IMG/VR virus record: IMGVR_UViG_3300017527_001322
Location: 1,843-65,842 of that record
Source of the DNA: a virus
Lineage: Duplodnaviria > Caudoviricetes
Strand: one strand, 5' to 3'
Length of the DNA stretch: 64,000 nucleotides
A program made the translations under genes and the position numbers. Under the pieces are notes generated by a model. It was not told the origin of the DNA. It ran no database searches and was given only the letters and a program-made list of their open reading frames with translations. How positions within the stretch are numbered: position 1 is the first letter of the stretch; each line of letters opens with the position of its first letter. Shown piece by piece: positions 2,500-62,661 of the stretch.

Positions 2500-3453
2500 G
2501 TGGTCATGGACCTGAAAGATGCAATCCAGAAGTACATTGGTTTCCTGGCGGCCATCCAGAAGTCCATGGCCACCATCAACAACTACGACAGTGCCTTCAG
2601 GCAATTCGTAGGTTTCACGGGCAATATGCCCGTTAGTGAGCTAGGTCCCCGGCACGCCAAGAGCTTCATGGTCGAGCTGGGGACTCGTGGTCTGGCACCA
2701 TCCACCGTCAAGGCCAGGATGGCTGCAATCACTGGGTTCTACGAGTACGTCGTTGATACCTGGGGACCCCTCATCGACGAAGAGGGACGCCATACCTACA
2801 TGACCAATGACCACATCCAGGCCATGAGACGCTGGCTCAAGAACAACAAGCCGAAACCCAAGAAGCGGGTACCCAGGGTGCCCAACGAGGCCCATGTCCA
2901 GACTGTCCGCCAGTACGCCCATCAGAGGGCAGCGGACAGGCCCGGTCCGTTCTCTTCCCGCAACGTGGCCATCCTTGAGATGCTGCTCTGCACCGGCTGC
3001 CGCCGCTCTGAGGTAGCGGCCCTGAAGTGGGACGACGTGGACCAGGTCAACCGGGTGGCCATTGTCAGGGGCAAGGGTGACAAAGAGCGGGTGGTGCCCC
3101 TCAGCAGGCAGGCCATGGACACCATGGAGCGCTACGCCAGGGAGTGGGCACCCAAGAACGATGGAGCTGTCTTCCAGCGTCACAACAGCCTGGGTAAGCG
3201 GCCTGCTGGGCAAATGAGCCCTGAGTCAGTCGGCAACATCCTGGACAGGCTCTGTCTGGGTGCCGGAGTGCCAGCCATCACGGCACACCAGTACCGGCAC
3301 CGAGCTGGCCAGATTATAGTCCAGGGAGCTGGGCTGGAGATGGCCAAAGAAATCATGGGCCACGAGAAAATCGAGACCACCATGGTCTACACTGATATGC
3401 AGTCCCTGGCGGTACAAGCGGCACACAGGCTGCAAGAGGAGGGTAAGCTGTAA
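2500..3453 (+). CDS. tyrosine recombinase/integrase (XerC/D-like)
   Basis: catalytic R (TGCRRSE), K (GKGDK), HxxR (HQYRH), H (MGH) and Y (TMVY); N-terminal SAM-like core-binding region. Confidence 0.93.
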   Translation: MVMDLKDAIQKYIGFLAAIQKSMATINNYDSAFRQFVGFTGNMPVSELGPRHAKSFMVELGTRGLAPSTVKARMAAITGFYEYVVDTWGPLIDEEGRHTYMTNDHIQAMRRWLKNNKPKPKKRVPRVPNEAHVQTVRQYAHQRAADRPGPFSSRNVAILEMLLCTGCRRSEVAALKWDDVDQVNRVAIVRGKGDKERVVPLSRQAMDTMERYAREWAPKNDGAVFQRHNSLGKRPAGQMSPESVGNILDRLCLGAGVPAITAHQYRHRAGQIIVQGAGLEMAKEIMGHEKIETTMVYTDMQSLAVQAAHRLQEEGKL

Positions 3454-4480: not shown

Positions 4481-4553
4481 TCATTCCTGTAGGATTTGAA
4501 CCCACTGCCATCAGTTTACGATACTGTTGCTCTGCCAATTGAGCTAAGGTTTG
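4481..4553 (-). tRNA. degenerate tRNA-Thr(CGT)
   Basis: 73 nt; D arm GCTC-AATTGGCA-GAGC, anticodon loop ATCGTAA, T arm GTGGG-TTCAAAT-CCTAC; two A-A mismatches in the acceptor stem; no encoded CCA. Confidence 0.7.
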
Positions 4554-10519: not shown

Positions 10520-10610
10520 CCCTGGGTAGGCATTGCCGATGTTGGTAGTATAATCAAGCCCGTTGAAGAAACGTGGCGAGAACGGTGGTTCGATTCCATC
10601 CCCAGGGCCA
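10520..10610 (+). ncRNA. atypical tRNA-like RNA ending in CCA
   Basis: CCCTGGG/CCCAGGG acceptor stem, GGTGG-TTCGATT-CCATC T arm, 3' CCA; non-canonical core. Confidence 0.6.
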
Positions 10611-56413: not shown

Positions 56414-56995
56414 TTATCGCCCTGTTTTACTGCCCAGGGCTGGCAGCCCTTCCTGCTGCTTGATACGCATCTGGCCCTCGCTGAACCAGCGTCGAAGACC
56501 GTGGGAGAAACTCTGAATCCGGTTCTCCTCCATCTGCTCTCTGGTCGCCCAGCCGACCACCCTGCCCTGCTTGTTCTCCATGTCGATGAACATCAGAATC
56601 AGGATGTCGGCAACGATGTGTTTGCGCCACTGGCCCTTTTCGCGCCTCGGGTCATCCGGTTCAAGGTACTCCATCAGGTAGATACCGCCGTACTCGTCTT
56701 CATAGGTCGTCGCCTTTATGTCGTAGCCGACTTCTCCAATCCTGAAGTCTACCCCACCGTCGCCCTCCGGTCGCATCGCCTTGTCCATCGGCACCCCAGT
56801 GAGCTCTTCAAAGACCTGCTCCCCCAGAAACCCAACGAAGTTGGTATCGTGCCGCGAGTAGCGCCTGGTGGACTTGTAGTTCCGCTTGACCTCAGTCCAG
56901 AGGCGGCCCCTCTCGCTATGCTCGTCCAAGAAGGGAGCAAGGTCAACCCAGTGCCCGTCACCCACCGTACCCCTCCGAATACAGCGTATCAGCAT
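56414..56995 (-). CDS. PD-(D/E)xK nuclease-like protein
   Basis: 'GFLGE...DGGVDF...YDIKAT...VVGW'. Confidence 0.65.
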   Translation of the reverse strand: MLIRCIRRGTVGDGHWVDLAPFLDEHSERGRLWTEVKRNYKSTRRYSRHDTNFVGFLGEQVFEELTGVPMDKAMRPEGDGGVDFRIGEVGYDIKATTYEDEYGGIYLMEYLEPDDPRREKGQWRKHIVADILILMFIDMENKQGRVVGWATREQMEENRIQSFSHGLRRWFSEGQMRIKQQEGLPALGSKTGR

Positions 56996-57854
56996 TGATG
57001 CTCATGAGCAGTTCCTGGACCCTCTTCACATTGGGCGACTTTGGCAAAACCGTGCCCATGTTGTACAGCGTCTGCCTCTCGGCCTCGGCCCACCCAAGTA
57101 AGTAGTCGTACTTGAATTCACCATGGAGCGTCTTGAGCACATATTCTTTCGTGCTGGCGTCAAGCACGGGGTTGAAGGAACCGGTTGCCAGCAAGGTGCG
57201 TCCTTGCAGAATCATCCTGACCAGGTTGGCGGCATGTTTGGTGTCATAGCCGTAGGCTGCTTCCAGCTTGGCACGAGCTGGGTTGCGCTCCTTCTTCCAG
57301 GTCTGGTAGTTTTTCCAGGTTCTGACAGCAGAGTTGTACCCGTTCTTGGCGTCGATGTGTGGAAACTCCAGCTTCTGGCCACCCTTTTCACCGGCGACAA
57401 CCTTGCCACCATACTCCCCCGGCACTGGCCGGTGAGTAGGCGGATTCTGGAGCCAGGCGTAGTGACGTTGGAGCCGCTTGAGCTGCGATGTGGCGTAGCC
57501 TGGAAACGTCCGGCGCACCCGCTGGCTCAGGAAGTCATGCCTGGCATGGTAGATGTCATGCCAGGCGCCAGATTCGACCTGCCAGGTTTCAGGTGGCGCG
57601 AACAAGAGCTCCAGAATGTTCGGGTTGGAGCCAAGGGCCAGCTTGGTGAACTTGTTGATGGCGTAGATGACGGTGTCTGACTCCTTCTCCTGGTACTGCT
57701 CGAAGTTGTCGAGACCCAGAAGAACCGTGGGCGGCATCAAAGTCACGCCCCTGGTGTCATAGTCGGAATCCTCCCGCTCGGTGCCGTAGAGCCGGCTGCC
57801 GGCGTAGATTCGGTGGATTGTGTTTTCGAGAGCCCATTCCTTGTAGTCCATCAC
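56958..57854 (-). CDS. Pol-beta-family nucleotidyltransferase (YcgL/RlaP-like)
   Basis: GSRLYG...SDYDTRG, NPNILELL and GYDTKHAANLVR motifs. Confidence 0.9.
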   Translation of the reverse strand: MMDYKEWALENTIHRIYAGSRLYGTEREDSDYDTRGVTLMPPTVLLGLDNFEQYQEKESDTVIYAINKFTKLALGSNPNILELLFAPPETWQVESGAWHDIYHARHDFLSQRVRRTFPGYATSQLKRLQRHYAWLQNPPTHRPVPGEYGGKVVAGEKGGQKLEFPHIDAKNGYNSAVRTWKNYQTWKKERNPARAKLEAAYGYDTKHAANLVRMILQGRTLLATGSFNPVLDASTKEYVLKTLHGEFKYDYLLGWAEAERQTLYNMGTVLPKSPNVKRVQELLMSINADTLYSEGYGG

Positions 57855-59762: not shown

Positions 59763-61864
59763 ATCTTCACGTCGACTTGGCGCAGGTCCCAGTTCACGGT
59801 GTAGTTCTCGCCGTCGTAGGGAACCGTGGTTGTGGTTTCTGCCCGTGATTTGCCCGGGAACCAGGCTTTGGTCATGGCCATGACGAACTTTTGCTGCTGA
59901 ACCGCATCGTCAAGAGCCTTCTTGATACCTTCCAGCCTGTCAATCTCGGTCTTCAGCCAGTTGACCTGCTCTTTGAGCGGAGCGTTTTCCACATTGTGGT
60001 CGAAGTCAATCAGGCCCTCGTAAACAAGCCCTTCACGGGTGGTGAGCTTCTTCCCGGCCTCTATTTTCTTGCGAACATGGTTCAGGCTGGGCAGCGAGGC
60101 CATGCCGGCAATCTTGACCTGGAACTCGCGCATCGGCAGCACGTCAGTGGCCTCTTCTTGCTCAGTCGGCGGTGAGAAGGTGCCATTCCAGCTTATGCCG
60201 TTGGCCTTCAGCACTGCTTCCTGGTCTGGTGTGAGCGGTGTCTTCCTGAGAGCATCATCCGGGTCGATTTCCTTGAGAATGGTGCGCAGGCCCTTTAGCT
60301 TGCCTGCCAGGAACTGGCTCTTGACAGCCATCTCACCAAGGACAACATCGCTCATCAGGTCGCCCCGCTTGCCCCTGGAAAGCACCGGCACCCGGTCGAG
60401 ATGGAGAGTGAAGTAGGGGCGTTCGGCGATGCTGAGCACACCCATCTTGTCCAGCACGGCCCAGGTGACAGGGCCGCAGGTGACAGGCAGCGAGTCCATG
60501 TTGGGGTAGCCATTTGCTACAAGGGTATAATTGCGGAAGGTGGTGGTTGGCCACCATGGACTGAAGCCGACACCCTCGTAGGTCTTGCCATCCTCGGTGG
60601 CAACCTGCAGAGGAACCTGGCCATTAAAGCTGGCTCGGACACTGAGGTTCATGCGGTCCTGGTTCCACACCAGGTCTGTGAACGGCACACCGGGATTCCG
60701 CTCTTCCCTCACGAACTCCGGGTAACCCTCCTTGACCTTCGACTTGCGGCCAATGCGGCGGTACTCAAAGTCATCGTGGAATGGGTAGAACCTGGCTTCT
60801 GGGTCGGCGGCCAGGATGTCCAGAACGTCCAGCAGGTCTGGCGCGTTGGGGTCCGGGGCGCAGCCTATTCGGCGACCCTTCATAAACCGGTTCTCGGGCC
60901 TGAAGGCTGCCATAATTGCGGCCTCCGCACGGCCAAACTCGTCGAGCGTGATAGCGCTGCCCAGCATGTCGGCAATGGCCACATCTCCGATATCGGAGAT
61001 GATGTCCAGGGCGTCATCGGTCTTCCCGGTCTGCATGGCCACGAGGGCCGAGGCGTACATGGGCAGAACCTGGTCAGGTAGCTCATCAACCTCCACTGGG
61101 TCCGGCGAGGAGTAGTAGACATCGGCGCCGGTCGGGACGCTGGCCTTGCCATCGTCCACACTGTGGATGTTGACCCCAGAGTCTGTAAAGGTGAAGACCA
61201 CCTCAGCGTCGGACGGGATGGTGATGACGGTACGCTTCGTCCCACGGCTGACCGTCACCTTGCCAACCTCGTGGCCAAAGTCGGTGATGCGGTTGGCGTG
61301 CTGCATGATGCCGCCGAGCGTCTTGGCCATCATGGTGCAGAGGTCTCGGTTGTAGTAGTTGCCGTAGCCGACCACCAAAGCAGAGACGATGTCATCCTTG
61401 ACCCCATTGAGGGCCTTGAATATCATCTCCCGCTCCGTGCGCTGGTTCCTGACAACCGGGTGACCATCGGTAAGCAGTGAGAAGGTGATGCCATCTGCGC
61501 GGCCCTTCGTGTGCTCGATGACCGTAGCCATGTCTGTCAGAATCTCCGAGAAGCAGGTCGTGTTGCGACCGTAGGCATAGCGCCTGATAATTTCGGCCAC
61601 ATACTGGCGGTCACTGTCAGTGTCGAGCCTCACGCCCTTGACATACCAGTTCCAGTCACCCTCTCCAGAAAAGTCCCCGATGGACACAAAGTCACCATCA
61701 GGGATGTCTTTGAGTGCGTTGATAACATCCTCAGCGCACTGCTTGGCCACCCAGGACATCGAGCCCGAACGGTCAAGCACAATTATGTGATGCAAGACGC
61801 CGGCAACCACCCCGGCCACCGCAGCCCTCACCACTCCCAAGAAATTCTTCCCAATCGTCAGCAT
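59759..61864 (-). CDS. vWA (MIDAS) domain protein
   Basis: DRSGSM (DxSxS), T and LTDG motifs; long unknown C-terminal region. Confidence 0.88.
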   Translation of the reverse strand: MLTIGKNFLGVVRAAVAGVVAGVLHHIIVLDRSGSMSWVAKQCAEDVINALKDIPDGDFVSIGDFSGEGDWNWYVKGVRLDTDSDRQYVAEIIRRYAYGRNTTCFSEILTDMATVIEHTKGRADGITFSLLTDGHPVVRNQRTEREMIFKALNGVKDDIVSALVVGYGNYYNRDLCTMMAKTLGGIMQHANRITDFGHEVGKVTVSRGTKRTVITIPSDAEVVFTFTDSGVNIHSVDDGKASVPTGADVYYSSPDPVEVDELPDQVLPMYASALVAMQTGKTDDALDIISDIGDVAIADMLGSAITLDEFGRAEAAIMAAFRPENRFMKGRRIGCAPDPNAPDLLDVLDILAADPEARFYPFHDDFEYRRIGRKSKVKEGYPEFVREERNPGVPFTDLVWNQDRMNLSVRASFNGQVPLQVATEDGKTYEGVGFSPWWPTTTFRNYTLVANGYPNMDSLPVTCGPVTWAVLDKMGVLSIAERPYFTLHLDRVPVLSRGKRGDLMSDVVLGEMAVKSQFLAGKLKGLRTILKEIDPDDALRKTPLTPDQEAVLKANGISWNGTFSPPTEQEEATDVLPMREFQVKIAGMASLPSLNHVRKKIEAGKKLTTREGLVYEGLIDFDHNVENAPLKEQVNWLKTEIDRLEGIKKALDDAVQQQKFVMAMTKAWFPGKSRAETTTTVPYDGENYTVNWDLRQVDVKI

Positions 61865-61887
61865 CTCTACCTCCCTTTTAGGTTCTC

Positions 61888-62094
61888 TTAACAGCTTCCA
61901 TATCGAAAAGAAATAAAGCTCTCGTCACTCTCGAAAAAGCCCAACTTGTCTAGTGCAGCCCAGTCTTCGTCCGAGACCTCGGACGAGTCAACGTCTCATA
62001 TATAGAGCGTGTCACGCTCACAATGGAACGGGCGTGCCCAGTCGCCCTTCACGTACTTGCGGAAAATCTCCATCGCCTTCAGAAACTCGTCCAT
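61888..62094 (-). CDS. 68-codon ORF with an in-frame TGA at codon 33 (candidate selenoprotein or pseudogene)
   Basis: ATG directly follows the upstream TAG; reading through the TGA fills the gap to the vWA RBS; SECIS-like hairpin downstream of the TGA. Confidence 0.6.
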
Positions 62095-62310
62095 CTATAC
62101 CCCCCCCTTCAATGATTTGTACCATCTCTGGTACTGTCTTAGAAACTCACCTATCCCCGCATCCACGTCCATGTAGGGCTCTGGCGGGTCTCCAACCGGG
62201 ATAAATCCCAGCTCCGGCTGCTCTGGCCGTTCGTGCCACTTTATGACATAGACACCGACATGCGATACTGGCTCCTCGCTTGGGATTTCCACCGCTTCGA
62301 ACAATCTCAC
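62095..62310 (-). CDS. hypothetical protein
   Basis: GTGA overlap with the upstream gene. Confidence 0.6.
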   Translation of the reverse strand: MRLFEAVEIPSEEPVSHVGVYVIKWHERPEQPELGFIPVGDPPEPYMDVDAGIGEFLRQYQRWYKSLKGGV

Positions 62311-62582
62311 TCGCCCCTCCCCTGTGCGGCTTCTATGGTGTCTTGTATTTGCTCCGCTTCTGGTCTTTTCCAGTTGACAATTTGCCCAGTGTCTAGGTCA
62401 ATGCGCAAGATGAGATAGTCGCCATATTCACCAGGAATCCACGGTGGGACATAGCCATCGTATTCAGCAAGTTTTTCTCCGTGCTGATCAAAGATGGTAT
62501 AGAATCCTGCGTCACGGACCTTGGCATGGATTTCGACTTCTTTGGCTTCAACCTCAATGGTTTTCTTCATTCCTATCTTCAC
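62307..62582 (-). CDS. conserved small phage protein
   Basis: 'GYVP..IPGEYGDYLIL.ID..TGQI.NW'. Confidence 0.75.
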   Translation of the reverse strand: MKIGMKKTIEVEAKEVEIHAKVRDAGFYTIFDQHGEKLAEYDGYVPPWIPGEYGDYLILRIDLDTGQIVNWKRPEAEQIQDTIEAAQGRGE

Positions 62583-62661
62583 AGCTTCTCTCCCTTCATA
62601 CTGTGTCTGCTAACGCGCAATGTCAGCCACTGTCCCTGCGTCTGTCATCAACGAATGACAC

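Follow-up and report, generated by a model that had tools for sequence, protein, structure and literature searches.

A candidate selenoprotein gene in a tailed phage, with a conserved in-frame TGA and a minimal hairpin downstream of it

Can a bacteriophage carry the gene of a selenoprotein and leave its decoding to the host? The question is raised by a small gene at positions 61888-62094 of the window, i.e., the whole stretch of 64,000 nucleotides (nt) analysed here, which covers bases 1843-65842 of the IMG/VR virus record IMGVR_UViG_3300017527_001322 (Duplodnaviria; Caudoviricetes). Its open reading frame (ORF) on the minus strand runs through a single TGA (coordinates in Table 1). An initial annotation, made from the letters of the sequence, had seen in this TGA and in the hairpin that follows it a selenocysteine (Sec) codon with its selenocysteine insertion sequence (SECIS), to be decoded by the machinery of the host. 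On re-reading the sequence, the ORF, the TGA and the hairpin proved to be placed correctly to the base, and translation with the TGA read as U reproduced the 68-residue protein with Cys25, Sec33 and Cys68 that had been predicted. We consider it quite probable, on comparative sequence evidence, that this is a phage selenoprotein gene dependent on the SelB of its host. The earlier proposal is supported by a TGA that is conserved at a Cys column of the protein family, by a hairpin that covaries and by the finding that TGA is not generally reassigned in these genomes.

The hairpin of the window gene is made of the arms TCGTCCGA (61986-61979) and TCGGACGA (61974-61967), which form eight perfect pairs around the loop GGTC (61978-61975), and it is the element found by RNA folding in both the minimum free energy (MFE) and the centroid structures. 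It is also coding sequence, specifying the peptide S-S-E-V-S-D-E. Taken by itself, it counts for little. The fold energy of the region is ordinary when compared with shuffled sequences (z -1.04 and z -0.77 in two runs), and a loose SECIS-like rule (at least six contiguous pairs, a loop of 3-8 nt with a G among its first two bases, and that G 17-25 nt from the U of the UGA) finds a hairpin at 15 of the 233 TGAs of the window that have open frames on both sides. The observation in this single sequence is not beyond chance. Because of these two results, any excess over chance must come from the relatives, and it is on the comparison with them that the case rests.

At column 33 of the family, Cys occurs more often than any other residue. 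It is found in 24 of the 51 loci that lack the TGA, always encoded by TGC or TGT, and in 34 of 118 representative proteins, while Trp appears in 2/118. The closest intact relative (P0003, 62% identity) shares the HCERD stretch of the window protein and likewise has Cys at this column, so that the exchange between Cys and TGA at codon 33, proposed beforehand as a check, is present in the family. Other genes with the TGA exist as well. Among the 55 family loci that an alignment-driven scan located in IMG/VR, one (L042, with a GC content of 32%) has TGA at exactly column 33. A scan of metagenomes with the pattern P-x-H-C-E-[HR]-D, four codons and TGA gave at least 119 stretches; among the matches listed, eight are family members (seven new genes and one copy of L042) and 111 are chance matches in unrelated frames. 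The same kind of scan of IMG/VR with the TGA pattern recovered only the contig of L042 and one chance match in another frame (L062). There are, then, at least nine distinct genes with TGA at codon 33, namely those of the window, of L042 and of at least seven metagenome contigs. Their proteins are 45-82% identical (median 59%) and the loci range from 27 to 56% GC. As nine independent assemblies share the TGA, a sequencing error is implausible. No further in-frame stop exists in any of the nine, and no stop was found anywhere within the gene in the 51 non-TGA loci. The statement in the initial annotation that related small phage proteins have HCEHD, a terminal GS and no stop was right for most relatives; it failed for the eight or more other distinct ones that share the TGA.

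All nine genes have an in-register helix of seven positions (eight in the window) that begins 10-11 nt past the UGA. The tetraloops are all of the form NGUN, GGUC in the window, UGUA in two genes, AGUU in four, and UGUG and CGUU, and their G lies 19 nt after the UGA codon in every case. RNAalifold found the 7-bp helix unprompted, with two-sided changes at three of the seven pairs. The wobble positions of the two Ser codons pair as U-A in five genes, A-U in two, C-G in one and G-C in one, and in no gene is this pairing lost. At the outer end of the consensus helix the pair is C-G in six genes and A-U, U-A and U-G in one each; two of these changes require a different amino acid on either side, Tyr...Ser in L105 and Val...Lys in L094. 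The third variable pair is kept in 7/9 genes. The covariation score, computed on nine sequences only, all of them related, was 0.399 against a shuffled mean of 0.113, with none of 500 shuffles reaching the same value, and controls in which the partner was slid by 1-3 columns gave 0.13 or less. Conservation and covariation of the hairpin, another of the checks suggested at the outset, are therefore what the relatives display. Using a strict definition (at least six contiguous pairs with the loop G at the right distance) on the 60 family loci for which DNA was available, the hairpin is present in 7/9 TGA genes vs 1/51 non-TGA loci (Fisher p = 7e-7), and the motif S[DE]VS[DE] in 9/9 vs 0/51, although such tests, by ignoring the kinship of the sequences, make the significance appear higher than it is.

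What lies behind the TGA is also conserved. Between TGA genes, the codons after it differ at non-synonymous sites with pN 0.07-0.35 and at synonymous sites with pS 0.59-1.12, which makes them as constrained as the codons before the TGA, or more so, and this half retains the family motifs L-G-F and [FY]-[RK]-[FY]-G-S-C. Judging from these rates and motifs, we conclude that the half after the TGA is translated and under purifying selection. The 19 phage records that match the read-through protein in a tblastn search (from Rhizobium, Agrobacterium and two uncultured phages) do so with at least 99% query coverage across the TGA, at 34-45% identity, and in 5/5 records inspected one uninterrupted frame encodes the homologue, which contains H-C-E-[HP]-D and has G-S-C or G-S-A at its C-terminus. 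By this alignment evidence the two halves around the TGA are one gene and not two.

These observations bear on two readings in which the TGA simply ends translation. The first is regulated termination, with the 32-residue N-terminal peptide as the functional product and the hairpin serving mRNA stability or the coupling to the downstream gene. Gene callers yield exactly this product (P0005, a cluster formed by a 32-aa protein identical to the N-terminal piece of the window gene), and decoding of Sec is inefficient in general, 30-40% in E. coli according to the part of PMC4513850 that we draw on. However, the downstream half keeps the family motifs and changes far less at non-synonymous than at synonymous sites, a separate C-terminal half would have no start codon with a ribosome-binding site (RBS), and ca. 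130 nt would be left untranslated in a tightly packed operon. Besides, the 32-aa piece would lack half of the compact fold predicted for the family by AlphaFold2, with a predicted local distance difference test score (pLDDT) of 94.3. We regard regulated termination as improbable. The second is a pseudogene or an assembly error, in which a nonsense change from TGY to TGA broke the gene. TGC and TGT are one change away from TGA, Cys is common at column 33, and the exact 32-aa fragment is recorded on only 2 contigs that may come from one assembly. Against this, nine distinct genes in separate records share the TGA column and are otherwise free of in-frame stops, as are the 51 loci without it; S[DE]VS[DE] is found only with the TGA, the strict hairpin hardly ever without it, and the downstream half shows the signature of purifying selection. 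A broken gene is, to our judgement, very improbable.

Still another explanation would be an alternative code, with all TGAs read as Trp or Gly in the phage or in its host (tables 4 or 25, or a recoded phage). Phages with recoded stop codons do exist, and in them, as in codes 4 and 25, every TGA is sense; here it is one TGA in each gene, set in a particular RNA context, that is read through. TGA is the terminator of 21 of the 49 long frames of the window, and the genes next to the small gene are intact under table 11. The same applies to the neighbour ORFs of L042, one of which terminates in TGA. The genes of L079 (976-1179, +) and L156 (2873-3085, -) read through the internal TGA and have TGA as their own terminator, so that the recoding is context-dependent within a single mRNA. 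Neither a suppressor tRNA nor a tRNA-Sec turned up in the window or the TGA loci. TGA is not reassigned generally in these DNAs, and we give the alternative code next to no weight. With a downstream half that appears to be translated, and with TGA serving as a stop elsewhere, the readings as a pseudogene, as two genes or as an altered code fall away together.

A tRNA-like element does exist elsewhere in the window (10520-10610, +). It has an acceptor stem of 7 bp, a T arm whose loop reads TTCGATT, and CCA at its 3' end. ARAGORN and Rfam both pass it over, and its MFE fold has no 7-nt anticodon loop or UCA. Lacking a UCA loop, it shows no sign of being a tRNA-Sec or a UGA suppressor and we discarded it as such.

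Bacterial SECIS elements generally have a stem of 6-8 bp and a loop with a conserved G ca. 20 nt downstream of the UGA, in the general description contained in Itoh et al. (2015, PMC4605307). The nine hairpins agree with this, their stems having 7-8 positions and their loop G following the codon at 19 nt. In E. coli fdhF (Sec140), which is the prototype, there is, as in the window gene, an in-frame UGA where homologues have Cys, followed directly by a hairpin inside the coding sequence. Loop and closing pair, A-GGUC-U, are identical in both, at nt 21-26 in E. coli K-12 fdhF and 20-25 in the window (counting the U of UGA as 1), which places the loop GGUC at nt 22-25 and 21-24, respectively, one nt closer to the UGA in the phage, and its GU at 23-24 and 22-23. 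We take U17, G23 and U24 of the fdhF element, numbered by counting on its sequence, to be the determinants recognized by SelB. The likeness to fdhF that the initial annotation had pointed out, both the AGGUCU tip and the absence here of the bulged U, stands when examined on the E. coli K-12 sequence. There are differences too. fdhF is a cellular gene and the window gene is phage-borne and from a new protein family; the phage hairpin is minimal, with a tetraloop of variable sequence (NGUN) and no lower stem that is conserved across members. Another counterpart is the fdhA gene of a Chloroflexia metagenome-assembled genome (MAG), L188, in which the Sec codon (TGA 3165-3163, -) sits in a canonical C-A-R-L-U-H-S site. 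The hairpin after it is much like that of the phage, a 7-bp stem free of bulges that carries the loop GGUCU at nt 22-26. It follows from this gene that a plain hairpin of such size is a real SECIS form and that the bulge is not universal.

The main rival explanation accepts the read-through and dispenses with SelB. The UGA would be read by a near-cognate tRNA (Trp, Cys or Arg) while the hairpin slows or remodels the ribosome, giving a mixture of the 32-residue peptide and the 68-residue protein. The conserved TGA, the conserved hairpin that starts ca. 10 nt past it and the selection acting on the second half of the gene fit this as well; the hairpin is short and without the bulged U of E. coli, no Sec machinery was found in the phage record or the TGA loci, and no TGA member among the 185,579 species genomes searched. 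However, it leaves unexplained both the Cys column and the Cys at the C-terminus, present in 9/9 TGA genes vs 24/51 non-TGA loci (p = 0.003), and a chalcogen residue at position 33 explains both. The rarity of Trp at this column also speaks against it. We know of no bacterial case in which a simple downstream hairpin drives efficient read-through. Finally, the length of the stem, the G and U of the loop and the distance match both real SECIS elements and the description of SelB binding in the portion of PMC4605307 considered here. We therefore hold hairpin-assisted read-through without SelB to be unlikely, if clearly less so than the readings in which the TGA terminates.

Several points weigh against the selenoprotein reading itself. 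The hairpin is small, with energies of ca. -5 to -14 kcal/mol, and the bulged U is absent from all nine, as it is from the window hairpin when set beside that of fdhF. The hairpins of L101 and L156 each contain a single internal mismatch. The codons of S-[DE]-V-S-[DE] dictate four of the seven pairs, and the G and U of the loop open a Val codon that is conserved throughout the family, so that in neither case is the invariance independent evidence. The Rfam SECIS models had no match in 61700-62300 at E <= 10, the only rows being two chance ones to long non-coding RNAs, and a scan of the window and eight TGA loci at the Rfam gathering thresholds found only a tRNA. As to the protein, column 33 is not essential in the family, as Met, Val, Asn, Ala and others also occur there; among the members without Sec, Cys33 and the terminal Cys are uncorrelated (p = 0.42); and in the strand register of the predicted model Sec33 would have no obvious bonding partner in Cys25. 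The nine genes are related and may descend from a single TGA origin: the phylogeny, made on 70 columns, is unresolved, and the TGA label requires five changes on it. Neither Sec machinery nor tRNA-Sec was found in the phage record, which is rated 61% complete, nor in the TGA loci, selB being absent from the former. The pattern of TGA plus hairpin had no match among one genome each of 185,579 species, a collection that thus offers no prophage copy in a named host, and in viral contigs it was found only in that of L042.

Under the selenoprotein reading, the UGA at codon 33 would be decoded as selenocysteine by the SelB of the host carrying Sec-tRNA(Sec). The signal recruiting SelB would be a minimal SECIS of the bacterial type lying within the coding sequence, a hairpin of 7-8 bp with an NGUN tetraloop, that would be written in the codons of the peptide S-[DE]-V-S-[DE]. 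Some members of the family would thereby have replaced the frequent Cys33 with Sec, and the decoding of the gene would depend on a Sec-competent host, possibly a member of the Chloroflexota in the case of the window phage. It seems likely that phages of very different hosts (27-56% GC) have turned Cys into Sec by means of such a portable minimal SECIS.

The features of the gene and its surroundings are collected in Table 1. The upstream stop abutting the start codon fits translational coupling, and 23 nt separate the TAA of the small gene from the ATG (61864) of the vWA gene that follows.

Table 1. Features of the putative selenoprotein gene and of its immediate neighbours, in window coordinates.
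Feature	Position	Strand	Remarks
Whole gene	62094..61888	-	ATG 62094-62092 to TAA 61890-61888; 68 codons; codon 33 is TGA
Proposed Sec codon, in-frame TGA (codon 33)	61998-61996	-	only internal TGA of the frame
SECIS-like hairpin	61986-61967	-	8-bp stem and GGUC tetraloop; starts nine nt past the TGA
Codons 21-25, R-P-F-H-C	62034-62020	-	start of the signature P-[FT]-H-C-E-[HR]-D; ends in the near-invariant Cys25
Codons 26-28, E-R-D	62019-62011	-	rest of the family signature
G-rich Shine-Dalgarno-like run before the ATG	62107-62100	-	read from the sequence; putative RBS
Upstream ORF	62095-62310	-	TAG at 62097-62095 directly abuts ATG 62094-62092
Downstream vWA-domain gene, 701 aa	59759..61864	-	RBS after the TAA; context only

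The source record is a linear virus of 65.8 kb, and the window has 56% GC. It encodes a tyrosine integrase, an SPP1-type portal and a capsid protein, and because of these genes the phage is taken to be tailed and probably temperate. The integrase gene (2500-3453, +) adjoins the sole tRNA that was called (Thr, anticodon CGT; 4481-4553, -). At the DNA level, the region 61500-62600 had no match among 50,697 phage records.

The family itself proved to be large. A full HMMER search of 1.84 billion representatives gave 289 protein clusters at E <= 0.001, including the 32-aa piece described above, which is the view that gene callers have of the window gene. In the 118 representative proteins, Cys25 is near-invariant (116/118), and His27 and Asp28 are each found in 107/118. 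A word-based search with the single protein and a single-protein locus search of viral contigs found no family member; the family surfaced only through tblastn, full HMMER and the alignment-driven scan. Nor does it have a name. The window protein was unmatched in Pfam, where the alignment of 119 members reached at best E = 0.012 and no Pfam family matched more than six members; PHROGs had no match for the family, NCBIfam and PADLOC none for 10 homologues, and the best hit of a PDB sequence search was E = 4.3. The AlphaFold2 model, built from 119 sequences, has the order helix, strand, strand, helix, strand, strand, with the signature residues on the strand 23-26 and the turn that follows. A fold search of the PDB with this model gave no convincing match (best Foldseek E = 0.48, best VIA Z = 4.5), and in BFVD it matched only uncharacterised phage proteins. 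A likeness to EIIB proteins of the phosphotransferase system (template modelling score, TM, 0.52; Z 4.0) was dropped, since the secondary-structure order and the motifs of EIIB are different. The family seems best described as small alpha/beta phage proteins of ca. 68 aa, large in number, unnamed and apparently confined to phages.

Some Cys-form relatives come from Rhizobium phages, e.g., RHph_Y65 (QIG72691.1) and RHph_I1_18 (QIG70840.1). They resemble the window protein in length and motifs, and the BFVD model of the RHph_Y65 protein superposes on the model of the window family with a TM of 0.93. Relatives of this type have Cys, Ser or Asn at column 33 and, unlike the window gene, neither the TGA nor S[DE]VS[DE] nor the hairpin. 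In two phage genomes, Agrobacterium phage OLIVR5 (MT234342.1, 107414-107632) and Rhizobium phage LG08 (PP429226.1, 4907-5125), an intact Cys/Asn-form family gene lacks annotation in GenBank. An antisense ORF (gp186c and CDS0010, respectively) and an overlapping plus-strand ORF are annotated instead, probably a misannotation.

The small gene sits among small early-type genes. The neighbours that recur are an RNA ligase at seven loci (L010, L011, L017, L021, L042, L063 and L094), an RlaP nucleotidyltransferase at four (57854-56958 on the minus strand of the window, i.e., 56958-57854, and L012, L048 and L055) and a helicase at five, none of them universal. Such neighbours, of the RNA-repair type, may hint at the role of the family, and are too weak an indication for assigning a function. 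In L042 the TGA gene is followed by an RNA ligase of 381 aa without intein. The RNA ligase gene of L094 (542-2617, +; PHA02142 OB-fold and RNA_ligase), directly downstream of the TGA-form gene, has an intein bearing a LAGLIDADG endonuclease. As for the protein, one might tentatively think of a thiol/selenol redox or metal-handling centre formed by Cys25 (in H-C-E-H-D), Sec33 and Cys68, a suggestion in which we place low confidence.

Which host could provide the Sec machinery? Among one genome each of 185,579 species, relatives of the portal protein were found at four loci, all in Chloroflexota MAGs, at 32-37% identity, and one of these MAGs also has a relative of the capsid protein (39% identity). 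All three of those genomes (3/3) have selB, selA and tRNA-Sec above the curated cut-offs, which adds little, as the same holds for selA in 76 of the 101 genomes sampled from the Chloroflexota (one of them, G041, unpublished). At 32-39% identity, these portal and capsid relatives make the Chloroflexota, in which selA, selB and selC are common, no more than a weak lead for the host of the window phage. If the lead is right, Sec competence of the host is likely. A search of the three Chloroflexota genomes with P0003 found no family member.

Viruses that carry selenoprotein genes are not without precedent. The virus-encoded ones named in the part of a 2021 review of recoding that we consulted (PMC8310308) are two poxvirus glutathione peroxidase (GPx) genes, of molluscum contagiosum and fowlpox viruses. 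There, as proposed here, the virus has the selenoprotein gene and uses the Sec machinery of the host, and the fowlpox SECIS, as given in the same part of the source, lies inside the coding region. However, the poxvirus genes are captured cellular genes of eukaryotic viruses with SECIS elements of the SBP2 type, whereas the window gene is from a bacterial virus, has a bacterial-type element and belongs to a family that is seemingly confined to phages. On the side of phages, a tRNA-SeC was predicted by tRNAscan-SE in Basilisk-like Bacillus phages, in a 2018 paper (PMC6145125). This is a tRNA call that hints at contact between phages and Sec, not a selenoprotein gene, and a search of the window and the TGA loci revealed no tRNA-Sec. 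No phage-encoded selenoprotein was found in the literature searched, which did not extend to supplementary tables such as Table S2 of BSepDB; the portion of BSepDB 2026 (111 bacterial families) that was covered does not mention 'phage', 'virus' or 'viral'.

Catalogues of selenoproteins have been built from cellular genomes. If the selenoprotein reading is true, phages exploit the Sec machinery of their hosts, and an early phage function would be tied to the selenium status of the host and to its SelB. Phage genomes would hold selenoproteins that gene callers split or drop, and routine annotation would miss such genes, as happened with the product of the window gene that was called as a 32-aa fragment. 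It would also mean that a hairpin of 7 bp with an NGUN loop is enough for bacterial SECIS function, which could be useful for engineering the insertion of Sec. Finding such a gene in an uncultured phage would then point to a host competent in Sec decoding, and host prediction would gain a new kind of evidence.

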